Source of the DNA: a virus
Lineage: Duplodnaviria > Caudoviricetes
DNA: 58,664 bases
IMG/VR virus record: IMGVR_UViG_3300049725_000037
Location: 1 to 58,664 of that record
Reading direction: 5' to 3' (one strand)
Made by a program: the position numbers and the translations under genes. This document shows, in pieces, positions 40,504 through 54,088 of this stretch. Every line of letters begins with the position of its first letter. Positions within the stretch are counted from its first letter, which is position 1. Under the pieces are notes generated by a model. The model was given only the letters and a program-made list of their open reading frames with translations. It had not been told where the DNA came from and ran no database searches.

Positions 40504-40797
40504 ATGCCTTCCTCGTGTGACCCGATGGAGACGGTCCTGCCCGTCCGCATCACCTCCGAAATGGCCGACGTGCTGAAGCAAATCGGCGCTCACACCGGCT
40601 CGACGGTCTCGACCGTGATCCGGATTGCGCTCCGGAAGGGCGCCCAGGCGGCTTGTGACGCGCTCTGCGTCGCCAACGACCGGCCGTTTTTGACTCTCAG
40701 ACTCGAAACGCTCAACCAACAAAAGCCATGTCCGACACCCAATCCATGCCCGAAGCAACAGAAGCCCCGCCCGCCGAAAATCCGGCCGGGCAAGTAG
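40504..40797 (+). CDS. Ribbon-helix-helix-like regulator
   Basis: VLPVRITSEMADVLKQIGAHTGSTVSTVIRIALRKG. Confidence 0.6.
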   Translation: MPSSCDPMETVLPVRITSEMADVLKQIGAHTGSTVSTVIRIALRKGAQAACDALCVANDRPFLTLRLETLNQQKPCPTPNPCPKQQKPRPPKIRPGK

Positions 40798-42266
40798 AGA
40801 CACGCGGCGCCCGCGCGCTGCAGATACGCGAACAGCAGCCGCCGTTGCTGGCGAAGTTCGAGGCGGCCAGCACGCAGGAGAAGATCCGCGCGCTGCTGCC
40901 CTCGACCCTGTCCTTTGACCGGTTCGCCCGGCTGACCGTCGGACTCATCTACCGGCAGCCCGAGCTGTCCGAGTGCGACCCGGTATCCTTCTTCAGCTGC
41001 CTCTCTGACTGCGCTCTCATCGGTATCTATCCCGAGGCGGTCACCGGCAAGTGCTACCTCATTCCGAGGTGGAACAAGAAGCTGAAGCGGAAGGTATGCA
41101 CCCTCTTGGTGGGCTACAAGGGCTTGCGCGAGATCGCCCTGCGCTCGCCTGAGATCCTGGACCTATGGACCGGCGTGGTCCGCAACGGCGACACCTTCCG
41201 CATTATCCGGGCGCCGCGGCAGGAGCTGCAGCACGAGCCGATGCCGCAGGAAACAGGGGAGATCGTCGGTATCTACTCCATCGCGGCCCTGCGCAACGGG
41301 CTGACGTCGTTCGAGTGGATGACCATTGGCGACCTGGAGAAGGTCAGGAACCAGAGCCAGGCCGGGCTCGAAGCATGGCAGGTCGAGAGCTCGCCCTGGT
41401 CGACCTGGTTCACAGAGATGGCCCGGAAGACGGTTTTCCGCCGGCATTTCAAGTCTTTGCCGATCCGGTCTGAGGATCAGGAGGTGCTCACCAAGGAGGC
41501 GGAAGGCGAGGAACGGGCGATCAAGAACGTGACCGCGACCGTCGAAGGCCCGTCCGAACCGTCCGGGGAAGCCCCCGCTAGCCGTCCTGAGATGCCCGCG
41601 CGCCGCGGTGGGGCCCGGGCGGTAGCGGAGGCCGCGCAACCGGCCTTGCCAGCCCCGTCCGAACCGTCCGGGACGCCCGAGGAGGCACCCAAGCCGGAAC
41701 CCGCCAAACCGACGGCGCCGGCCGCAGGGGTATCAACACCCGCACCGACCCGCCGGAGGCCCGCAGCGGCCACGGTAGCCCCTGCCACACCCCCGCCGGC
41801 GGAATCATCGCCCCCGGCAGCGGTGGAAGCGGCGAAAACCGTTTCCAAGACCGTTTCCACGCCACCCCCGGCCGCATCCGGCCCCATCGGCGAGAAGTCG
41901 AAGTGCCCGGAGATCGCGCCCGGCGTGACCCTGGCCGGTTTTCACGGCAAGGCGTGGCCCCAGGTGATCCAATTCGAGGTTGTTGAGGCCGTCGCGGCAC
42001 CGTATGGCTCGAAGTCCGCCCTGGTGGACATCAAGGTCACGGCGGACGGCTACAAGGGCCATGTGTTCTGCATGGAGGGCGCTGCGCTGAACGAACAGGG
42101 TGCTCCGATGCTGACATCGAAGATCCTGAAGCCCGGCGCGCTCCTCGAGGCCAACTGGAACGCGGTGCCCAGGTCGACGGGCGGCGTGACCAACTACACC
42201 CGGCCGCCGGTGATCGTGATTTCGGCGATCGATGTGCAGAAGGAAGACAGCCCCTTCAGAGGGTAA
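40728..42266 (+). CDS. recT: RecT-family recombinase with Pro-rich linker and extra C-terminal domain
   Basis: PELSECDPVSF, CYLIPR, GYKGLREIALRS, PWSTWFTEMARKTVFRRHFKSLP. Confidence 0.9.
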   Translation: MSDTQSMPEATEAPPAENPAGQVETRGARALQIREQQPPLLAKFEAASTQEKIRALLPSTLSFDRFARLTVGLIYRQPELSECDPVSFFSCLSDCALIGIYPEAVTGKCYLIPRWNKKLKRKVCTLLVGYKGLREIALRSPEILDLWTGVVRNGDTFRIIRAPRQELQHEPMPQETGEIVGIYSIAALRNGLTSFEWMTIGDLEKVRNQSQAGLEAWQVESSPWSTWFTEMARKTVFRRHFKSLPIRSEDQEVLTKEAEGEERAIKNVTATVEGPSEPSGEAPASRPEMPARRGGARAVAEAAQPALPAPSEPSGTPEEAPKPEPAKPTAPAAGVSTPAPTRRRPAAATVAPATPPPAESSPPAAVEAAKTVSKTVSTPPPAASGPIGEKSKCPEIAPGVTLAGFHGKAWPQVIQFEVVEAVAAPYGSKSALVDIKVTADGYKGHVFCMEGAALNEQGAPMLTSKILKPGALLEANWNAVPRSTGGVTNYTRPPVIVISAIDVQKEDSPFRG

Positions 42267-44779: not shown

Positions 44780-45088
44780 ATGAGCACAAACGACCCCGCG
44801 ATCACCCGCGACAACCAGCCTCCAGCACCGTATGGCGTGATGGATATTACTGCGGATGAACTCACCCGCCTTCGCGCCAACCTTGCCGAGATTTCCCGCC
44901 ACGCCGGAATCGAGGTCTTTGAGGCGAATGAGGAGGTGTTGAAGCTGACCACCGAACTTGCCGCAGCCAAAGCTGCCCACCTAGAATCCGAGAAACAACT
45001 GCGCTGTTGGCAAGATAAGTACGCCTCCGTCACAACCGAGCGGGACGCGCTGCTTGCCGAGCGGGACGCGCTGCTTGCCGAGCGGTGA
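44780..45088 (+). CDS. Coiled-coil hypothetical protein ending in ERDALLA x2
   Basis: ATG at 44780; 21-bp tandem repeat near the 3' end. Confidence 0.6.
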   Translation: MSTNDPAITRDNQPPAPYGVMDITADELTRLRANLAEISRHAGIEVFEANEEVLKLTTELAAAKAAHLESEKQLRCWQDKYASVTTERDALLAERDALLAER

Positions 45089-45133
45089 CGCATGAGAGAA
45101 AATAGCCTTTTTCACTTTCTCACCCTAAATCCA

Positions 45134-45469
45134 ATGAAATCAAAAGTTCAAATTCACTACCGCCAGGGCGATGTGCTGATTGAGCGCGTTCCCTCTCTGC
45201 CCGCAAATCGAACGAAGCTCGCGCGTGAAAACGGCCGCGTGATCCTCGCTCATGGCGAGGTCACCGGCCACGCCCATGCGATCTCCGCTGCCAACGCCGA
45301 TCTCTATTCGGCGGTCGATTCCGGAGATGTGACCTTCCTCGAAATCCGGGACGCCATGGTCGAACTCGAGCACGATGAGCATGCCACGGTGACGCTCCCG
45401 CCAGGCAATTACGTCGTGCGACGTCAGCGCGAATACACCCCGGAGGAAATTCGCCGTGTCGCAGACTAA
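45134..45469 (+). CDS. Conserved His-motif protein (RQGDV...GEVTGHAH...HDEH...RRQREY), copy 1
   Basis: Motifs recalled as the usual partner of DUF6745 genes. Confidence 0.85.
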
Positions 45470-46502
45470 TTACAGTCCGGAAGTCCAGGCATTGCTCGAT
45501 CGCCACGCGACGGCTTGCGAGCTGAAGATGCCGGTTGATCGCGAGCGCATCGCCGATCGCTTGACGGCCTGTCTGGCGGGCGTTTCGCGAGAAAAGTTGC
45601 AGGTCCGCTTCCTCGACCGAGCCGATGAAATCAGCTCGGTCGTCATAAAGGCCAGGGCTGCCTGGGATGCCAGGGCTGCCAGGGATGCCAGGGATGCCTG
45701 GGCTGCCAGGGCTGCCTGGGATGCCAGGGCTGCCAGGGATGCCAGGGCTGCCTGGGATGCCAGGGCTGCCAGGGCTGCCAGGGCTGCCAGGGCTGCCTGG
45801 GATGCCAGGGCTGCCTGGGCTGCCTGGGATGCCTGGGATGCCTGGGATGCCAGGGCTGCCTGGGATGCCTGGGATGCCTGGACTGCCAGTTGGGATTGCA
45901 GTTGGTTGCCCGTAATTTCGATCGGTGCGCTAGAGCGCGCCGACAGAAAGCTGCACAGCATTTGGCTGCCTCTGCTGGAGGCATTCGAGGCTGGCGCCTG
46001 GCTATTCTGGATTACGGCGGACGAACTGGTGGTCGCCGAGCGTCCCTCTGCGGTACGCACCGACGATCGCCGGCGTCTACATCATGCGTCCGAGCCGGCG
46101 TTTTCCTGGCTCAGCGATATCCGCGAGTTCTATATTCACGGCGTCCATGTTCCGAGCTACATCATCGAGCAGCCGGAAACGATCACCATTACCGAGATCG
46201 AATCGGAACGAAATGCCGAGGTGCGACGGGTGATGATCGAGCGTTACGGCCGGGCGCGGTTCTTGACCGAGTCCGGGGCCGCTCAGATCCATGCCGATGA
46301 TTTCGGGATTCTCTACAGGAAGGAGGTCACTGGAGATGAGCCAATCGTGATGGTGAAGGTGATAAACGCCACGCCGGACCCGGCTGGCACGTTCAAAGAC
46401 TACTTCCTGCGCGTTCCTCCGACGATGCGGACGGCCCGCGAGGCGGTCGCCTGGACGTTCGAGAAGGAAGCCGACGCTTATGCGCCGGCAGTCCAAACAT
46501 GA
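45456..46502 (+). CDS. DUF6745-like protein with A(R/W)(A/D) repeats, copy 1
   Basis: [13 protein letters not shown]...[41 protein letters not shown]. Confidence 0.8.
45651..45884 (+). repeat. 9-bp coding minisatellite GCC(A/T)GGG(C/A)T, 25 units plus 1 degenerate, copy 1
   Basis: Read directly; encodes ARA/ARD/AWA/AWD. Confidence 0.95.
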
Positions 46503-46554
46503 TCAGGGAAACCGATCTTTTCGGCGCCGGCCGGCACGGCGCATCCGGCAAGCC

Positions 46555-46686
46555 ATGAAACCTACTTTCCGCTGCTCGGAACTCGGTCAAGTCCTCTGGT
46601 GCCCCGGCTCGAAGGCGCTTGGGGCCAAGGGTCACAACCGAGCGGGACGCGCTGCTTGCCGAGCGGTGACGCATGAGAGAAAATAG
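46555..46686 (+). pseudogene. Truncated 5' copy of the Cas4-like nuclease gene at the duplication junction
   Basis: MKPTFRCSELGQVLWCPGSKALGAK identical to the start of 48136..49284, then diverges at 46631. Confidence 0.85.
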
Positions 46687-46714
46687 CCTTTTTCACTTTC
46701 TCACCCTAAATCCA

Positions 46715-47050
46715 ATGAAATCAAAAGTTCAAATTCACTACCGCCAGGGCGATGTGCTGATTGAGCGCGTTCCCTCTCTGCCCGCAAATCGAACGAAGCT
46801 CGCGCGTGAAAACGGCCGCGTGATCCTCGCTCATGGCGAGGTCACCGGCCACGCCCATGCGATCTCCGCTGCCAACGCCGATCTCTATTCGGCGGTCGAT
46901 TCCGGAGATGTGACCTTCCTCGAAATCCGGGACGCCATGGTCGAACTCGAGCACGATGAGCATGCCACGGTGACGCTCCCGCCAGGCAATTACGTCGTGC
47001 GACGTCAGCGCGAATACACCCCGGAGGAAATTCGCCGTGTCGCAGACTAA
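46715..47050 (+). CDS. Conserved His-motif protein, copy 2
   Basis: Translation identical to 45134..45469. Confidence 0.8.
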
Positions 47051-48083
47051 TTACAGTCCGGAAGTCCAGGCATTGCTCGATCGCCACGCGACGGCTTGCG
47101 AGCTGAAGATGCCGGTTGATCGCGAGCGCATCGCCGATCGCTTGACGGCCTGTCTGGCGGGCGTTTCGCGAGAAAAGTTGCAGGTCCGCTTCCTCGACCG
47201 AGCCGATGAAATCAGCTCGGTCGTCATAAAGGCCAGGGCTGCCTGGGATGCCAGGGCTGCCAGGGATGCCAGGGATGCCTGGGCTGCCAGGGCTGCCTGG
47301 GATGCCAGGGCTGCCAGGGATGCCAGGGCTGCCTGGGATGCCAGGGCTGCCAGGGCTGCCAGGGCTGCCAGGGCTGCCTGGGATGCCAGGGCTGCCTGGG
47401 CTGCCTGGGATGCCTGGGATGCCTGGGATGCCAGGGCTGCCTGGGATGCCTGGGATGCCTGGACTGCCAGTTGGGATTGCAGTTGGTTGCCCGTAATTTC
47501 GATCGGTGCGCTAGAGCGCGCCGACAGAAAGCTGCACAGCATTTGGCTGCCTCTGCTGGAGGCATTCGAGGCTGGCGCCTGGCTATTCTGGATTACGGCG
47601 GACGAACTGGTGGTCGCCGAGCGTCCCTCTGCGGTACGCACCGACGATCGCCGGCGTCTACATCATGCGTCCGAGCCGGCGTTTTCCTGGCTCAGCGATA
47701 TCCGCGAGTTCTATATTCACGGCGTCCATGTTCCGAGCTACATCATCGAGCAGCCGGAAACGATCACCATTACCGAGATCGAATCGGAACGAAATGCCGA
47801 GGTGCGACGGGTGATGATCGAGCGTTACGGCCGGGCGCGGTTCTTGACCGAGTCCGGGGCCGCTCAGATCCATGCCGATGATTTCGGGATTCTCTACAGG
47901 AAGGAGGTCACTGGAGATGAGCCAATCGTGATGGTGAAGGTGATAAACGCCACGCCGGACCCGGCTGGCACGTTCAAAGACTACTTCCTGCGCGTTCCTC
48001 CGACGATGCGGACGGCCCGCGAGGCGGTCGCCTGGACGTTCGAGAAGGAAGCCGACGCTTATGCGCCGGCAGTCCAAACATGA
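47037..48083 (+). CDS. DUF6745-like protein, copy 2
   Basis: Translation identical to 45456..46502. Confidence 0.8.
47232..47465 (+). repeat. 9-bp coding minisatellite, copy 2
   Basis: Same unit order as 45651-45884. Confidence 0.95.
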
Positions 48084-48135
48084 TCAGGGAAACCGATCTT
48101 TTCGGCGCCGGCCGGCACGGCGCATCCGGCAAGCC

Positions 48136-49284
48136 ATGAAACCTACTTTCCGCTGCTCGGAACTCGGTCAAGTCCTCTGGTGCCCCGGCTCGAAGGCGCT
48201 TGGGGCCAAGGCGAAGCCGCGCGCCAGGGATTCCACTCAAGCTACTGCCGGTCAGTGGTGTCACGCCCGTGCGGCACAACGCCTGCGCGACGAAGAAAGC
48301 GCGACAGGCCCCGCGATCGTCTTGCCGGAACTCAAGGCCGACCGCTTCAAGGAGTGGATCGTGTCCTACTACCTCGACACCGTCCGCATGTACGTCGAGG
48401 CGGACATGGCGATCGAGTACGAGGCGGCGCTCGAATGGGAGTTCCCTCGCTTCATCCTGACCGGCCACATGGACGTTCTCGCGCTCAACGCCGACGCGAC
48501 GGAGTTTGTCGGCTTGGATCTGAAATCCGGGACGGACCCCGTCACCCCTGCGGAGGACAACGCCCAGGGACTTGGGTATCAGGCGCTCGTTGCGCTCAAT
48601 TACCCGACCGTGCAGCGCAGCACGTTCGCCCTCGTGCAACCGACCAACAACCCGGATGACGGCCTGGAGCGCGTGACCGTGGCACGATCCGAGACCCGCG
48701 GCGCACTCGATGCACAGGTCACATACCTTGAGCGCGAACTGAACCACGTTCTCGACGCCGCCGGCGAACTGAACACCGGCTGGCGCCAGTGCCATTACTG
48801 CCCGGCCGCCCTCATCTGCCCAGCCTTCGAAGCCGACGCCGATCTTATTATGAGAATGATCCTCACCCCTGAACAGCTCGCCGCGATCCCGGACGAGCCT
48901 GACATCGAAAAGCTATTCGTCTTCGAGGCTGCCCGGAAGCAGTTCGAGGAACCGCTCAAACTGGCCCACGAAACGCTGAAGGCGCGCGTGGCCGAGATGG
49001 GCGGCGCCGAGCTATCCGACGGGACCAAGCTCCTGGTCATCGACCGGCCCGGCGCGCGGACCATCACGGACAACGCAGCGGCGACGGCCGCGCTCAACGA
49101 CCTGCCGGAAACCCTCTGGCACACCTGCTACAAATTCCGGCCGGGCGAGATCGAGATTGCCCTGGCGGAGTTCCTCAGCCTGCCGAAGACGTCGAAGAAA
49201 GGCCCGAGCGGGGCGAGCGCCTACAAGGACCGGCTGGGACACATAACCGTCTCGGCGGTCAACAAGGTGCTCAAGATCGCGTGA
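48136..49284 (+). CDS. PD-(D/E)xK Cas4-like exonuclease (DUF2800-like)
   Basis: WCPGS, GHMD...DLKSG, QGLGY, QCHYCPAALICP. Confidence 0.8.
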   Translation: MKPTFRCSELGQVLWCPGSKALGAKAKPRARDSTQATAGQWCHARAAQRLRDEESATGPAIVLPELKADRFKEWIVSYYLDTVRMYVEADMAIEYEAALEWEFPRFILTGHMDVLALNADATEFVGLDLKSGTDPVTPAEDNAQGLGYQALVALNYPTVQRSTFALVQPTNNPDDGLERVTVARSETRGALDAQVTYLERELNHVLDAAGELNTGWRQCHYCPAALICPAFEADADLIMRMILTPEQLAAIPDEPDIEKLFVFEAARKQFEEPLKLAHETLKARVAEMGGAELSDGTKLLVIDRPGARTITDNAAATAALNDLPETLWHTCYKFRPGEIEIALAEFLSLPKTSKKGPSGASAYKDRLGHITVSAVNKVLKIA

Positions 49285-49294
49285 CTTTCCCACC

Positions 49295-49651
49295 ATGAAA
49301 AAAGAAACCACCGTTAAGACCCCGATGCCCGTCAAGCCGGTGCATCCTGACAAAGAAATCGAAATCCAACTCGAATACATCACCAAAGCGTCCACGGAAT
49401 ACCTGAGTGAGGAAGTCGATAAAGAAGGAAAATCACGGCAGGAAAATAACTACGGTTTCACGAAGCACAGCACACGCGGGGCGTGGCTCATTGAAAAGCA
49501 CTTAAAGGCGCGGATTTCTGAACTGCTCGTCAGCGGTATCAACGAAGCCCACGCCGCACTCGCGAAAATGATTGAGGATGAAGTCAAGGGAGCCCTCCAA
49601 CGCACGTTCACGACGATTACTGTTGCGACGAAAACGCAGATTCGAGAATAG
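49295..49651 (+). CDS. Hypothetical protein
   Basis: 118 aa; C-rich leader. Confidence 0.65.
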   Translation: MKKETTVKTPMPVKPVHPDKEIEIQLEYITKASTEYLSEEVDKEGKSRQENNYGFTKHSTRGAWLIEKHLKARISELLVSGINEAHAALAKMIEDEVKGALQRTFTTITVATKTQIRE

Positions 49652-49678
49652 GCCGGCAACTCTCAACCGCACCCTACC

Positions 49679-49909
49679 ATGATCCCCCTACTCATCATCA
49701 CCCCCATCATAGCCGCGCTGCTCGGCTACTTCCTTGGCTATCACACCGCCAAGAGCCTCTGGCAGCGCACCGCCGACTTGTACCGCCTCCGCAACGAGCG
49801 GCTGCTCTCCGGCCTTCGCGGCGTGCTGTGCGGCCTGCCGGGCTTCACCCTGCGCGGCGTGCTGGACCGCTACTACGCCGACATCCGCGACGAGAAAGAA
49901 CTACCCTGA
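49679..49909 (+). CDS. Small protein with N-terminal TM helix
   Basis: MIPLLIITPIIAALLGYFLGY. Confidence 0.65.
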   Translation: MIPLLIITPIIAALLGYFLGYHTAKSLWQRTADLYRLRNERLLSGLRGVLCGLPGFTLRGVLDRYYADIRDEKELP

Positions 49910-49913
49910 CGCC

Positions 49914-50354
49914 ATGCCCCGCCGCAGACCAGACCAGTACCCGCAAGCGATTCACGACCAGATCGAGGCGCAACTGGCGCATACTACCGATTTAACCACC
50001 GCAAGTGCGCCGTTTGTACGGCACCAATTCTCCTTTCATCCCCATGCTCACGCTCACAGTCTACTACCGGACCCCGAGCCTCAACGTCACCAAGCGGCAG
50101 CATTGGGCCGTGCAGATGCAGGAGAAACAGAAGGCATTCCGCGCGCTCGCGTCCGCTTTGTTGGATACCGCGTCCGACCCCTCGACCCGGACAACTTCGC
50201 CGGAAGTGTCAAAGACCTGCTCGACGGCCTACGTCACGCTCATCTCATACATGGAGACGAACCATGGCGCATCCGGCTCGAAACGGAACAGGTCAAAGTC
50301 GCGCATGAATCTGACGAGCGAACAGTTATTGAGATTGGCGCTGCCGATTGCTGA
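49914..50354 (+). CDS. RusA-like resolvase, catalytic C-terminal half
   Basis: RVRFVGYRVRPLDPDNFAGSVKDLLDGLRHAHLIHGD...RTVIEI (DxDN...K...D...GD). Confidence 0.7.
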   Translation: MPRRRPDQYPQAIHDQIEAQLAHTTDLTTASAPFVRHQFSFHPHAHAHSLLPDPEPQRHQAAALGRADAGETEGIPRARVRFVGYRVRPLDPDNFAGSVKDLLDGLRHAHLIHGDEPWRIRLETEQVKVAHESDERTVIEIGAADC

Positions 50355-50367
50355 CGCGCCTGAATAA
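50044..50367 (+). CDS. RusA-like resolvase, N-terminal half in an overlapping frame
   Basis: MLTLTVYYRTPSLNVTKRQHWAVQMQEKQKAFRALASALL; start context CATCCCC-ATG. Confidence 0.6.
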   Translation: MLTLTVYYRTPSLNVTKRQHWAVQMQEKQKAFRALASALLDTASDPSTRTTSPEVSKTCSTAYVTLISYMETNHGASGSKRNRSKSRMNLTSEQLLRLALPIADAPE

Positions 50368-50459
50368 GCCTTGCTCCCTCGACCCTTCCGGGCCACCCTG
50401 CCCCTTGGCTGGAGAAAGTGACCATGCTCCGCCAACCCAGAACACCCTTCTAACCCTCT

Positions 50460-50545
50460 GCCGTCGCGTCGGGGTTCCATTCGGCCGGGCTGTCTCAACA
50501 GCCGACCGCTTTGGAGGTCACCGTCGGCGCGGCGGCTCTTTTTTC
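50460..50545 (+). terminator. Long imperfect hairpin with T-tract
   Basis: GCCGTCGCGTCG...GGCTGT-CTCA-ACAGCC...CGGCGCGGCGGC-TCTTTTTT. Confidence 0.4.
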
Positions 50546-50547
50546 CT

Positions 50548-50718
50548 ATGATCCTCCCTGACGACGAACGCTGCATTGAGATTCTTGAGGCGCTTCAGGA
50601 TGAGCCGAACCTGACTCCATGGGAATCTGATTTCATCGAGAGCAACCTCGACAGGACCAGCTTCAGCCCAAAGCAACGTGATGTATTCGGCCAACTAGAA
50701 GACAAGTACGACGTATGA
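50548..50718 (+). CDS. 56-aa acidic protein
   Basis: Manual translation MILPDDERCIEILEALQDEPNLTPWESDFIESN...SPKQ; ATGA overlap with the helicase. Confidence 0.65.
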   Translation: MILPDDERCIEILEALQDEPNLTPWESDFIESNLDRTSFSPKQRDVFGQLEDKYDV

Positions 50719-52376
50719 CCCTCCGCGACTACCAGGTCCGTTGCCTCGACGCCATCCGCGAAGGATGGAAGCAGTGGCGAACACAGTTTGTCGTGGCCGC
50801 AACAGGCGTGGGTAAGACAGAGATCTTTGCCCGTCTGGCCGGCGAATGGGTGCAGCATGGCGGGCGGGTGCTGATCGTCGCTGACACCGAGGAGCTTGTC
50901 GCGCAGTCCATCGCCAAGGTCCATCGCTCGACGGGTATCCTCCCCGGCATGGAGAAGGCCGAGAGTGTGGCGAGCCTTTCAGATAAGATCGTTGTGGCGT
51001 CCATCCAGACGATTTCCCGTCCTAACCGATTGAGTGTGTGGCCGGCGGATCACTTCGCCCTCATCATCATCGACGAGGCGGACAAGGGGATCGCGCCGAG
51101 CTACAAGACGATATTAGAGCACTTCACGGCGCGGGTTTGCGGATTCTCCGCAAACGCGGATCGTGGCGACAAACGCAACATCGCGGAGGTGTTCGAGAAC
51201 ATCGCTTTCGAGTATAACCTTGCGGACGCAGTGCGCGACGGCTGGCTCGTGCGCCCGATAGTTGAGACGGTGCCGGTCAAGATCGACATGAAGGGTGTCG
51301 GCAGCCGGCGCACCAAGGAGGGGTCGGACTATGACGAAACCGAGGTAAACAATCGGCTAGAACCCCTGATATCCGCCATGTGTGCGGAGCTGGTGAGGAA
51401 GATCGGGAACCGGCGCACGCTGGTCTATCTGACATCGATCCACCTCTGTAAGATTGCAGCAGAGGCGGTCAACATGCTTGGGGTGCCGGCGCAGTACGTG
51501 ACCGGCGTATGTGATGACCGCACAGAGAAAGTCGCGGCGATCCGCACGGATTCGGTGCAGGTTACATTCAACTGCTCGCTCTTGTCCCGAGGCTACGATG
51601 AGGACAGTATCCGGTGCATCTCAGTTTGGCGGCCAACCAAGATCCGTAGTGTGTTGCTCCAAGCAGTTGGCCGGGCAACCCGTCCACTCCAGTGCATCGT
51701 CGAGCGGCTGAACGCGGAGCCGAGCTTCACGGCTCGCCAGCAGATCATCAAGGAATCGGAGAAGGGCGATGCCCTGATTCTCGATTTTCTCTGGCTGACC
51801 GACACCCTTGCCCTCGTCCGCCCGACGGATCTGGTTGTCACGAACACTGAGATCGCTGAGCACGCGAAGAAGCTGCCCCAGCAGGGCGACTTGCTCGAAC
51901 TGGCGGAGTTTGCCGGCCGGGACTACCTGAAGGCGCTGGAGAAGCGCATGAGGGAGGTCGCCAATCGCAAGGCCCGTGTGATTGATCCGCTGGTCTTTGC
52001 CGTGCAGACAAACGATGAGTCCCTTGAGACCTACGAGCCGTCGAGCCGGTGGGAGATCGGACAGCCGACAGGACCGCAGGTGAAACTCCTCGGCCAACTT
52101 GGCATCGATCCCAGTAAGGTCACGTCAAGCGGATACGCTTCGAAGCTGATCACGCGGCTGCTGGCCCGGCGGAAAGAAGGTCTCGCGAGCGTGCAGCAAA
52201 TGTCCTTCTTGGGCCGGCTGGGTGTGCATGGCACGGACCGGATGACCCGCGATGAGGCCAAGGCCCGGATCGATGCACGCTTGGCGGAGTTGCGCGGCTG
52301 GTCTCCGCAGGCGAAGAAGCCGGAACCACAACTGGAACTGCGCATGGAGCCCGTTATGTCGCTGGAGATCCCATGA
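50715..52376 (+). CDS. Superfamily 2 (DEAD-like) helicase
   Basis: LRDYQ, ATGVGKT, IIIDEAD, LSRGYD, QAVGRATR. Confidence 0.92.
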   Translation: MTLRDYQVRCLDAIREGWKQWRTQFVVAATGVGKTEIFARLAGEWVQHGGRVLIVADTEELVAQSIAKVHRSTGILPGMEKAESVASLSDKIVVASIQTISRPNRLSVWPADHFALIIIDEADKGIAPSYKTILEHFTARVCGFSANADRGDKRNIAEVFENIAFEYNLADAVRDGWLVRPIVETVPVKIDMKGVGSRRTKEGSDYDETEVNNRLEPLISAMCAELVRKIGNRRTLVYLTSIHLCKIAAEAVNMLGVPAQYVTGVCDDRTEKVAAIRTDSVQVTFNCSLLSRGYDEDSIRCISVWRPTKIRSVLLQAVGRATRPLQCIVERLNAEPSFTARQQIIKESEKGDALILDFLWLTDTLALVRPTDLVVTNTEIAEHAKKLPQQGDLLELAEFAGRDYLKALEKRMREVANRKARVIDPLVFAVQTNDESLETYEPSSRWEIGQPTGPQVKLLGQLGIDPSKVTSSGYASKLITRLLARRKEGLASVQQMSFLGRLGVHGTDRMTRDEAKARIDARLAELRGWSPQAKKPEPQLELRMEPVMSLEIP

Positions 52377-54088
52377 CCGCCCTACCCCGATCGCTGGAGA
52401 TCCCTGATGACTTTCCGCCGGAGCCGCAGGTACAGCCGAAGGCTACTCCAAGGACGGAGCCCAAGCCGGTAGCCCGGAGCGCCGCGCCCATCCTGACCCC
52501 TCAGCCGGTCAACGGCATTGGACGCGAGCCGCCGCACAGTGCCGAGGTCGAGGAATACCTGCTTTCGTGCTGTCTCCTGGATGGCGGGGAAACACTCGCG
52601 AAGTGCGATATTCTCTCGCCGGATGCGTTCTATTCTGCGGTCAACCGGGTCGTCTTCAACGCGATGCGGGCGGAGAGCAAGGAGAAGCCGCCCCTCACGA
52701 TTGAGGGGTTGGTCGAAAGGTTGCGGGATTCCAAGCAGCTCTCCGACATCGGCGGGCTGCCGTACCTCATGCGGGTCAGTGCGCGCATTCCAACGACCGC
52801 CCAGGCGATCAACTTCCGGGACAAGGTGCATCAACTGCATATGCTGCGGGAGTTCATCAAGCTGAACACCACGGCAGTAGAAAACGCCTATGCTTTCTCC
52901 GGGGAGTTGCCGGAACTCATGTCGACTTTCCGCCGGCAGGTCGAATCGCTTGACTCACGGGTATCGAGCCAGGCGGCAGGCTACACGATTTGGACGCTCG
53001 ATGACTTGGAGAATTTCGTCCCGCCGACCGACTGGGGCATCCTAGCGGAGCACGATACGCACCCCGTCTGGAGTCTTTCCCGGCTGGCGACGCTGATTGG
53101 AGCCGGCGGCATCGGGAAAAGCCGGCTGGCACTGTCCTTCGCCGTCTCTCAGATTATCAACACTCACTGGTGCGGCTTGCTGACCATTCCCCCGGCCCGG
53201 AAATGGCTCTTTGTCGGTAACGAGAACTCCACAACCCGGCTGAAGAGTGACCTCATCCCAATGACGGCGGGGCTCAAGAAGGCGCAGATCGAAGCCGTGA
53301 AGAAGCACCTGTTTATTCAGGTGCTCGGGACAACAGAGGACTCGTTCATCACACTCGACGATCCCTTGGCCGGAGCCCGCTGGCGAGCCACGCTGGCGAA
53401 GATCAAGCCGGACATCCTCGTGATCGATCCATGGGAGAGCGTGATCATCGGAGGGGACGTAAACGACGCGGCGGCAACCCGCGAGACGTGGAGGGTCATC
53501 CAGGGATACATGCTCGGGGCGGGTCTGGTGCCGACGGTCTTGGTGGTTCATCACGCGAAGACCGGGGCCGATGCGACCCGGAGCGCCGTGGGCTACGACG
53601 CCGCGAGCTTCGCGAAGGGCAGCAAGACCCTATTCTCCATTTCCCGGCTGCAAATCAACGTGGCGGCCGGCGACGACGAGGACGGCGGGAAACTCGTGAT
53701 CGCCTGCGGAAAGTGCAACGATGCGAAGGTTTTCACCACACGGGGGGTTGCGCTGAACGAAGAGACGCAGCACTACGAGATCGACACGGGTTTCGATCTT
53801 CAGAACTGGATTGACGACGTCGAGGGGAAGCGGAGCGGAGGGTCGGTCACGATCCAAGATTGCGTGGAGGCGATCAAATCAGGGAAGACGCGGGCCGGCG
53901 ACATCGTCGAGTACCTGAAGCAGCAAGGCGGGGGCAGCGCGCGGACGATCGCACGCAGGCTTGGCGAGGCGTGCAAGCGGGGGTATCTACAGGGGACGAT
54001 GCCGCGGGGGTCCTACACACTTGGAGAGAAGAAACTTGATGCGCCGGTGCCGCCTGAAGTGGCCCGGTCGCCGTACAACGAAGGGTAA
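52373..54088 (+). CDS. Replication helicase: DnaB N-terminal domain + RepA/AAA_25 ATPase + winged HTH
   Basis: PPHSAEVEEYLLSCCLLD...FY...IGGLPYL; GAGGIGKS; LVIDP; VVHHAKTG; C-terminal SARTIARRLGEA. Confidence 0.85.
   Translation: MTALPRSLEIPDDFPPEPQVQPKATPRTEPKPVARSAAPILTPQPVNGIGREPPHSAEVEEYLLSCCLLDGGETLAKCDILSPDAFYSAVNRVVFNAMRAESKEKPPLTIEGLVERLRDSKQLSDIGGLPYLMRVSARIPTTAQAINFRDKVHQLHMLREFIKLNTTAVENAYAFSGELPELMSTFRRQVESLDSRVSSQAAGYTIWTLDDLENFVPPTDWGILAEHDTHPVWSLSRLATLIGAGGIGKSRLALSFAVSQIINTHWCGLLTIPPARKWLFVGNENSTTRLKSDLIPMTAGLKKAQIEAVKKHLFIQVLGTTEDSFITLDDPLAGARWRATLAKIKPDILVIDPWESVIIGGDVNDAAATRETWRVIQGYMLGAGLVPTVLVVHHAKTGADATRSAVGYDAASFAKGSKTLFSISRLQINVAAGDDEDGGKLVIACGKCNDAKVFTTRGVALNEETQHYEIDTGFDLQNWIDDVEGKRSGGSVTIQDCVEAIKSGKTRAGDIVEYLKQQGGGSARTIARRLGEACKRGYLQGTMPRGSYTLGEKKLDAPVPPEVARSPYNEG

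Follow-up and report, generated by a model that had tools for sequence, protein, structure and literature searches.

RusA of Escherichia coli, a resolvase of the DLP12 prophage and phage 82 (PDB entries 1Q8R, 2H8C, and 2H8E; Pfam PF05866), is the closest described system to the locus analyzed here. It is one chain of ∼120 amino acids, and its alpha/beta fold runs β1-α1-β2-α2-β3-β4 within that single polypeptide, two identical copies of which form a homodimer. Enzymes of this family cleave Holliday junctions in a Mg-dependent reaction and suppress ruv defects. The Rz/Rz1 spanin of phage lambda provides an embedded out-of-frame phage gene pair whose products belong to one complex, whereas dnaX is the type case of programmed -1 frameshifting, in which two reading frames are joined into one chain. 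A full-text literature search, with supplementary files outside it, returned no paper on a split or overlapping-frame RusA. A section of the PRFect paper (PMC10885494) names "RusA/RuvC" among genes "known to contain a frameshift," and the support given in that section is a 1991 ruvC paper, with no recoding study. In the relevant part of PMC5764923, RusA and the tail-chaperone frameshift are mentioned separately.

The window analyzed here is the whole 58,664-nucleotide stretch of an IMG/VR viral record (58.7 kb), and between positions 49914 and 50367 two ORFs of its forward strand overlap. ORF B (49914 to 50354, forward strand, 146 amino acids) starts at ATG 49914, 4 nt past the stop of an ORF at 49679 to 49909, and ends with a stop codon at 50352 to 50354. 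ORF A (50044 to 50367, forward strand, 107 amino acids; P0001 in our protein set) starts at ATG 50044 and stops at 50365 to 50367. The frame of B is -1 relative to that of A, A lying one base ahead. The first-pass annotation of the window had read this pair as a RusA-like resolvase, with the N-terminus in A and the catalytic half in B, and had offered either a two-chain split enzyme or an unusual recoding event as the explanation; it had also proposed to look for an assembly indel, to search other phages for the same layout, and to co-fold both products. Both ORFs and their assignment to the two halves were confirmed.

ORF A begins with a short hydrophobic strand (β1), followed by TPSLN (50071 to 50085), HW, and a Lys-rich amphipathic helix (α1), and its last 67 residues form a tail encoded by the catalytic half of B read in the +1 frame. 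Its conserved functional module, β1 plus α1, covers 50044 to 50160 on the forward strand, as delimited by A-phase variability and conservation of the helix. ORF B consists of an N-terminal peptide, a linker of ∼50 residues, and the catalytic half of the RusA-like fold. The part of B that lies 5' of A's start (49914 to 50043, forward strand) carries a motif of the ..P..Y.Q.I..QL type, and the catalytic half (50142 to 50351, forward strand; β2, α2, β3, and β4) corresponds to the last 70 residues, which read R.RVRFVGYRVRPLDPDN...K...DGL...GDE with DPDN at 50184 to 50195. The two modules meet in a dual-coded core of 19 nt (50142 to 50160, forward strand), which encodes the end of the A helix (..ALASAL) and the start of the first B strand (R.RVRF).

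The total coding size is similar to that of E. coli rusA, and both loci sit in a phage recombination/replication module. In contrast to RusA, strand 1 and helix 1 are placed here in a separate ORF one base out of frame, the ∼10-residue loop between helix 1 and strand 2 is missing, 19 nt code in both frames, and B has an extra N-terminal peptide and linker. As with lambda Rz/Rz1, almost all of one ORF is contained within another that is read in a different frame, and both products are here predicted to come from one mRNA and to bind each other. Rz and Rz1, however, are two different proteins, whereas the chains described here each represent one half of a single ancestral enzyme domain, and a portion of their overlap has a function in either frame.

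Genes for a RecT-like annealing protein (40728 to 42266), an exonuclease (48061 to 49284), and two helicases (50715 to 54088) surround the pair and make up the recombination/replication module. No sigma-70-like promoter was found in 49600 to 50800. A terminator-like hairpin with a T run stands 3' of the ORF pair (50521 to 50545, forward strand); it is a consensus match only, and one such site was found where 0.8 was expected by chance. Further upstream, the window holds a perfect 1,581-nt tandem duplication (45057 to 48218), the copies of which begin at 45057 and 46638 and are 100% identical over the 300 nt compared. It doubles a pair of ORFs of 125 amino acids (phrog_27831) and 348 amino acids, the latter with a long run of repeats of 9-nt period (45543 to 45986, and a second run from 47124 onward), and it could be real or an assembly artefact.

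Membership in the RusA family, as far as profile searches go, is weak. PHROGs 34 and 1682, both named "RusA-like Holliday junction resolvase," match ORF B of the window with E values of 0.011 and 0.023, and relatives are matched by a RusA-like PHROG down to an E value of 1.4e-7. Pfam gave no RusA match at E ≤ 1 for either window ORF or for 10 homologues and recognized three of seven single-frame relatives (best E value, 0.0012), while NCBIfam gave no match for the window ORFs. A profile of the B half searched against PDB sequences found no RusA and returned chance matches to Bet v 1-type allergens (E values of 0.04 and above). The ESM Atlas returned unnamed viral clusters at 0.93 to 0.94 and one cluster at 0.85 that carries RusA on 10% of its members, which we treat as a lead only. 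The catalytic signature is preserved: residues D91, D93, K100, D104, and D115 of ORF B are invariant in 69 homologues, and in the B half, D17, D19, N20, K26, D30, and D41 are invariant in 31 sequences (D-x-D-N...K...D). As in E. coli RusA, this Asp-x-Asp-Asn...Lys...Asp signature stands at the start of the second helix, and we take the invariant Asp/Lys set to be the counterpart, by signature, of the catalytic residues D70, D72, K76, and D91 of the E. coli enzyme. D70 appears in the titles of the PDB structures matched in the comparison below.

Structure prediction linked the family to RusA at the level of the fold. The model of a single-frame relative (P0114; pLDDT of 93) has a strand at residues 4 to 8, helices at 15 to 20 and 23 to 44, a loop at 45 to 54, and a strand at 55 to 63, followed by the catalytic helix and two strands. 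Its top seven PDB matches are all E. coli RusA (2h8c, 1q8r, and 2h8e; E values from 9e-5; TM scores of 0.60 to 0.73), so that the same alpha/beta fold is recovered, and the helix of the A module equals in length the helix at 23 to 44 of this model. For ORF B, AlphaFold2 with a 69-row alignment predicted strands at 78 to 86, 120 to 128, and 136 to 143 and a helix at 92 to 108, all at pLDDT values of 95 to 98, whereas a helix at 11 to 27 was of low confidence, residues 28 to 77 formed a coil linker, and nothing replaced β1 and α1 of A (pTM of 0.50). In these models B supplies β2-α2-β3-β4 and A supplies β1 and α1, which together give the full RusA order of elements. The models do not show that B needs A, given that the catalytic half of B folds confidently without it.

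We then co-folded the two pieces, using the first 41 residues of A and the last 72 of B with a 31-row alignment each. The front module of A docked onto the catalytic half of B with an ipSAE of 0.66, against 0.02 for the best of three controls; the mark set for docking is reached by 58 of 80 solved complexes and by 2 of 110 mismatched pairs. The runs agreed in at least 97% of contacts, with partner pLDDT values of at least 79. Residues 1 to 14 of A contact residues 61 to 68 of the B half, and residues 27 to 39 of A contact residues 8 to 12 and 20 to 37, so that the pose is that of RusA, with the A strand against the last strand of B and the A helix on the helix and first strand of B. This result supports binding of A to B without proving it and shows that the pieces are complementary, which does not make them separate chains; it may also only mirror the likeness to solved single-chain RusA. 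In the docking controls the pLDDT of the B half fell to 59 to 60 with unrelated partners. We considered this drop as proof that B needs A and ruled it out, as AlphaFold2 folds the B half alone at 95 to 98.

Searches with the frame-B half returned 583 cluster representatives at E ≤ 1e-3, 109 of them at E ≤ 1e-10. Among the 150 representatives listed, only three (P0114, P0121, and P0144) carry PSxN in frame with the catalytic half. The remaining ones show, upstream of the strand, a peptide like P-[DNH]-[PAST]-[EKQ/VI]-[P/A]-[QEK]-[RC]...ALG, which is the exact -1 reading of TPSLNVT[KR].QHW, and the alternatives EP and VA in this peptide match a switch of the Ser codon between AGC and TCG in frame A. 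The DNA of relatives was drawn from a metagenome, IMG/VR, and GTDB genomes, and 149 loci that include the catalytic motif together with 200 nt or more of upstream sequence were reduced to 111 distinct cores, of which 104 are split and 7 are single-frame (some counts below use 105 rows, namely the 104 split loci and the single-frame relative L061). The one-polypeptide fold of RusA is therefore absent from the window and from 104 of 111 distinct relatives.

In every split locus A is +1 relative to B. Measured between the PSLN Ser codon and the first Asp codon of DxDN, the spacing is 107 nt in 95 loci, 119 nt in four, 113 nt in two, and 128, 125, and 104 nt in one each, all values being 2 modulo 3, compared to 153 to 168 nt in single-frame relatives. 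The split loci cover at least 22 lineages under 70% nucleotide identity. Relatives with one continuous ORF, which the first-pass annotation had named as evidence against its reading, are absent among close relatives, and the only seven found are distant ones. Judged by these comparisons, the two-frame layout is a family-wide trait, beyond chance.

The frame-A tail (50128 to 50354) as the query recovered frame-A ORFs of relatives (P0002 and P0003), while another search with the same query gave chance matches only (E values of 0.9 to 4), and a scan of viral contigs with P0001 found no relative. Neither blastn of 49600 to 50800 nor tblastn of the frame-B half matched any of 50,697 phage records, so that no cultured phage with the gene is found there.

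Selection was assessed by codon phase in a gapless alignment of 32 sequences, less than 90% identical and anchored on the Asp codon, from which positions are counted here. The most variable codon position is the third of A from -144 to about -30 and the third of B from -18 onward. In the A module, P11, S12, and N14 are invariant and W21, K28, and L39 nearly so in 31 relatives, down to 25% identity, and in the B half R, L, D, D, N, K, D, D, Q, and T are invariant. These patterns place each frame under its own purifying selection and, as in an overlapping gene pair, both frames are open and each has its own start.

Between -42 and -24, which is 50142 to 50160 in the window, both frames are constrained in the 32 sequences. 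The helix positions of frame A are conserved up to the codon at 50158 to 50160 and the strand positions of frame B from 50142 onward, and the earlier claim that helix and strand share bases at about 50135 to 50165 is thereby supported and narrowed to the 19-nt core. Frame B has R at -42 in 30 of 32 sequences, V or I at -33 in 31, and I, F, or V at -27 in all 32; the helix codons of frame A are hydrophobic at -38 in 32 of 32, Ala or Gly at -29 in 27, and Leu at -26 in 32. At -27, all 32 sequences use NTT as the B codon, while other F, I, V, and L codons of B end in T in just 21% of cases (97 of 455), and the overlapping Leu codon of A is TTR in all 32, against 25% (31 of 122) for other Leu codons of A. 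This restriction is what dual coding predicts.

Frame B is open past the Ser codon of A, with an upstream ATG, GTG, or TTG, in 104 of 104 split loci, and synonymous resampling of the codons of A puts the chance of this openness at about 0.5 per locus, within a span of roughly 0.3 to 0.7. The N-termini of B fall into recurrent motif classes, counted with rough regular expressions among the 150 representatives listed: FP.AS in 26, W[TS].E in 9, the ..P..Y.Q.I..QL type of the window in 6 (in the frame-B N-termini of P0017, P0030, P0037, P0050, and P0060, for example), G[YF]...DG.Y in 5, and LRAMHR in 3. The FPNAS motif varies at the third positions of B in 11 distinct loci, which indicates that B is read from upstream of A. 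Two internal B starts were also considered, one at an NTG overlapping the Trp codon of A and one at -48, and were rejected as by-products of the TGG codons of A; an ATG or GTG occurs at -48 in only 4 of 42 loci.

For A, 66 of 105 rows have an ATG in the 75 nt preceding the Ser codon, and 38 have only GTG or TTG there. In lineages that use Shine-Dalgarno sites, GGAGG is placed 8 nt ahead of the start of A, which comes immediately behind a stop codon in frame A. Nine loci (L019, L022, L023, L025, L026, L028, L044, L056, and L059) use Shine-Dalgarno sites, with a GGAGG or AAGG core 5 to 9 nt before the start of A. They share a [G/T]TG-A-[A/G]TG motif ∼140 to 150 nt before the Asp codon, in which the upstream gene ends in a TGA that abuts the ATG or GTG of A and is overlapped by a frame-B NTG lying 4 nt before that start. 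A single Shine-Dalgarno site could possibly feed coupled initiation in both frames at these nine loci.

The window itself is different, as there is no Shine-Dalgarno site at ATG 49914 or at ATG 50044. Most of the 42 ORF starts inspected in this phage are likewise without a Shine-Dalgarno core. The sequence at these starts is typically a C-rich "..ccc ATG" or "..acc ATG," as would suit a host that initiates translation independently of Shine-Dalgarno sites. The good start contexts claimed in the first-pass annotation hold in the sense that both ATGs share the C-rich "..cc ATG" of the phage's other genes, although not in the sense of a ribosome-binding site. It is this likeness to other gene starts that suggests internal initiation at the ATG of A, which lies inside ORF B. 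In an RNA run (X19), coverage near the locus is confined to 49789 to 49955 and 50584 to 50700.

Three other explanations were weighed. Viewed in the window alone, the locus resembles a 1-nt frameshift in a RusA-like gene, and single-frame relatives do exist, as expected if the pair were a frameshift pseudogene or the product of an assembly indel. A 1.1-kb stretch of the locus is present in 20 public runs from 15 studies of peat, permafrost, lake, and bioreactor metagenomes, 8 of which runs may be the source of the record itself. Contigs of X9, X11, and X16, which come from three studies and are not marked as possible sources, span 50135 to 50165 with no differences and no indels. With these three independent assemblies identical and the layout present in 104 distinct loci at fixed spacing, with purifying selection on both halves, a broken gene is extremely improbable and, as far as sequence data go, refuted. 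The main rival is a programmed -1 ribosomal frameshift, or transcriptional slippage, in which translation would start at the ATG of A and slip near 50140 to 50165 into frame B to give one short RusA-like chain, the long upstream frame-B ORF being incidental or a second product. The -1 relation is invariable and, as in dnaX, joins two ORFs of one functional unit with Shine-Dalgarno-like strings upstream (AAGGAGG or CAGGAG in the Lys/Glu-rich helix of A, 20 to 40 nt 5' of the core in many loci). Heptamers of the type A aaa aag are present in 4 of 42 loci. In two lineages, with 125- and 119-nt spacing, the end of the helix and the start of the strand share hardly any sequence, and a fusion there would lose little; the docking result would suit a fused chain equally well. 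In contrast to dnaX, however, there is no conserved slippery heptamer and no downstream structure, and selection acts on the upstream part of the -1 frame, which is open and possesses a start codon. As the first-pass annotation had noted, frame A of the window holds no canonical heptamer, and none of the form X XXY YYZ is found between -89 and -15 in frame A of 38 of 42 distinct loci, the window included. Nucleotides -60 to -42 are variable, and the RNA of 50150 to 50260, with a minimum free energy of -28.4 kcal/mol, is no more stable than its shuffled versions, which average -29.8 (z = +0.40; 132 of 200 shuffles as good).

The dual-coded core weighs further against a frameshift, since no single product could retain both the end of the helix and the start of the strand. 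A fusion would be short by ∼18 residues, including part of the helix or the strand, because the A helix has canonical length, its end overlaps the first strand of B, and the loop is absent; the earlier claim that a single frameshift would lose one element thus stands. A fusion also has no need for a frame B that is open from upstream starts in all 104 loci or for an N-terminal motif selected in that frame. The protein library holds three variants in which the frames are joined, each at a position of its own and in one case beyond the catalytic DxDN, and these look like the result of errors or decay. We therefore regard the frameshift as unlikely. A double shift, from B to A and back to B, would give one chain as well and was set aside, as it needs two unsignalled recoding events. 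The remaining alternative is that chain B alone is the resolvase, with its own N-terminal peptide or a dimer partner in the place of β1 and α1, and that the product of ORF A is a small protein acting independently, such as a regulator, or a remnant of the front half kept for another role. All catalytic residues do lie on B, its catalytic half is modelled confidently without A, and its conserved N-terminal peptides, of at least five motif types, are absent from single-frame relatives. Yet purifying selection, traceable down to 25% identity, has kept in A the exact front-half pattern of RusA (strand, PSxN, W, K, and an amphipathic helix as long as the canonical one), and A is predicted to occupy the canonical place on B, whereas neither the low-confidence N-terminal helix of B nor its coil at 28 to 77 is modelled as a substitute for β1 and α1 (pTM of 0.50). 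This alternative appears quite unlikely to us.

The best explanation is a two-chain RusA-like resolvase made from overlapping genes, to which we give a probability close to 0.7. It is favored by the fixed family-wide spacing, the phase of purifying selection in each frame, and the dual coding of helix end and strand start, together with a frame B that is always open from an upstream start and the lack of a conserved frameshift signal; of the two options originally offered, the split enzyme is thus the better supported by layout, selection, and the open frame B. We infer that both starts are used. Ribosomes starting at 49914 would make chain B, composed of the N-terminal peptide, an unstructured linker obtained when the coding region of A is read in the -1 frame, and the catalytic half with its Asp/Asp/Lys/Asp set, and those starting at 50044 would make chain A, composed of β1, the PSLN turn, α1, and a tail that is probably disordered. 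The A strand would pair with the last strand of B and the A helix would pack on the helix and first strand of B, restoring the alpha/beta fold of RusA. Such AB units would in turn pair in the manner of the RusA homodimer, and the assembly would cut four-way junctions made by the neighboring RecT/exonuclease recombination module.

The open tail of A counts against the two-chain reading. Frame A stays open through the catalytic half of B (50164 to 50364 in the window), and the tail of A ends within 30 nt of the stop of B in 51 of 105 rows. This is more often than expected, the probability under synonymous resampling being about 0.2 per locus, within a span of roughly 0.1 to 0.45. The sequence of the tail is not conserved, since the third positions of B vary freely there. 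The two-chain model does not explain this excess openness.

Extended to the family, the two-chain reading makes it rather probable that a widespread clade of phage RusA-like enzymes, hundreds of clusters at 50% identity, are obligate hetero-oligomers. Their domain would be cut between helix 1 and strand 2 and encoded by overlapping out-of-frame genes with separate initiation, with the helix end and the strand start on the same 19 nt, and in some lineages one ribosome-binding site would serve two start codons that lie 4 nt from each other at the stop codon of the upstream gene.

If this is true, a small and well-understood nuclease fold can be split and remain functional, with both pieces kept in overlapping frames over deep divergence, down to 25 to 40% identity. 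It would be a natural case of fold complementation between overlapping-frame products that gene callers and family models have overlooked: gene callers would list the locus either as a "hypothetical protein" whose N-terminal stretch makes no sense or as two small ORFs with no relation to each other, and the split enzyme would escape Pfam and NCBIfam. The locus would also offer a natural system for the study of dual-coding constraints, of enzyme fragment complementation, and of out-of-frame initiation at internal sites, also in hosts that lack Shine-Dalgarno sites. The N-terminal peptides that recur on chain B may give a lead to its partners in phage recombination.

Two split relatives come from bacterial genomes in GTDB, one with 81% identity in the B half in a Chthoniobacteraceae metagenome-assembled genome and another in one of Candidatus Udaeobacter (loci L062 and L063; in L063 the spacing is 125 nt and the modules barely overlap). 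Because of these loci, the comparison suggests Verrucomicrobiota as hosts of the phage lineage of the window.

Some variants of the locus were seen in passing. One 60-nt contig of run X9 (depth of 5) joins 50110 straight to 50546 and omits 435 nt, a segment that takes in the greater part of the resolvase locus along with the spacer leading to the next ORF; the contig may represent a deletion carried by part of the population, or it may be a graph artefact. In L004 and L067, at the end of an IMG/VR contig, ∼150 nt of frame-B coding sequence are directly repeated, so that the strand-DPDN-DGLR stretch is doubled, probably as a terminal-repeat or assembly effect. A frame-B type ORF of 244 amino acids (P0049) carries an inserted HNH endonuclease domain (PHROG E value of 2e-34), which sits between the FP..S N-terminal motif and the RusA-like half.
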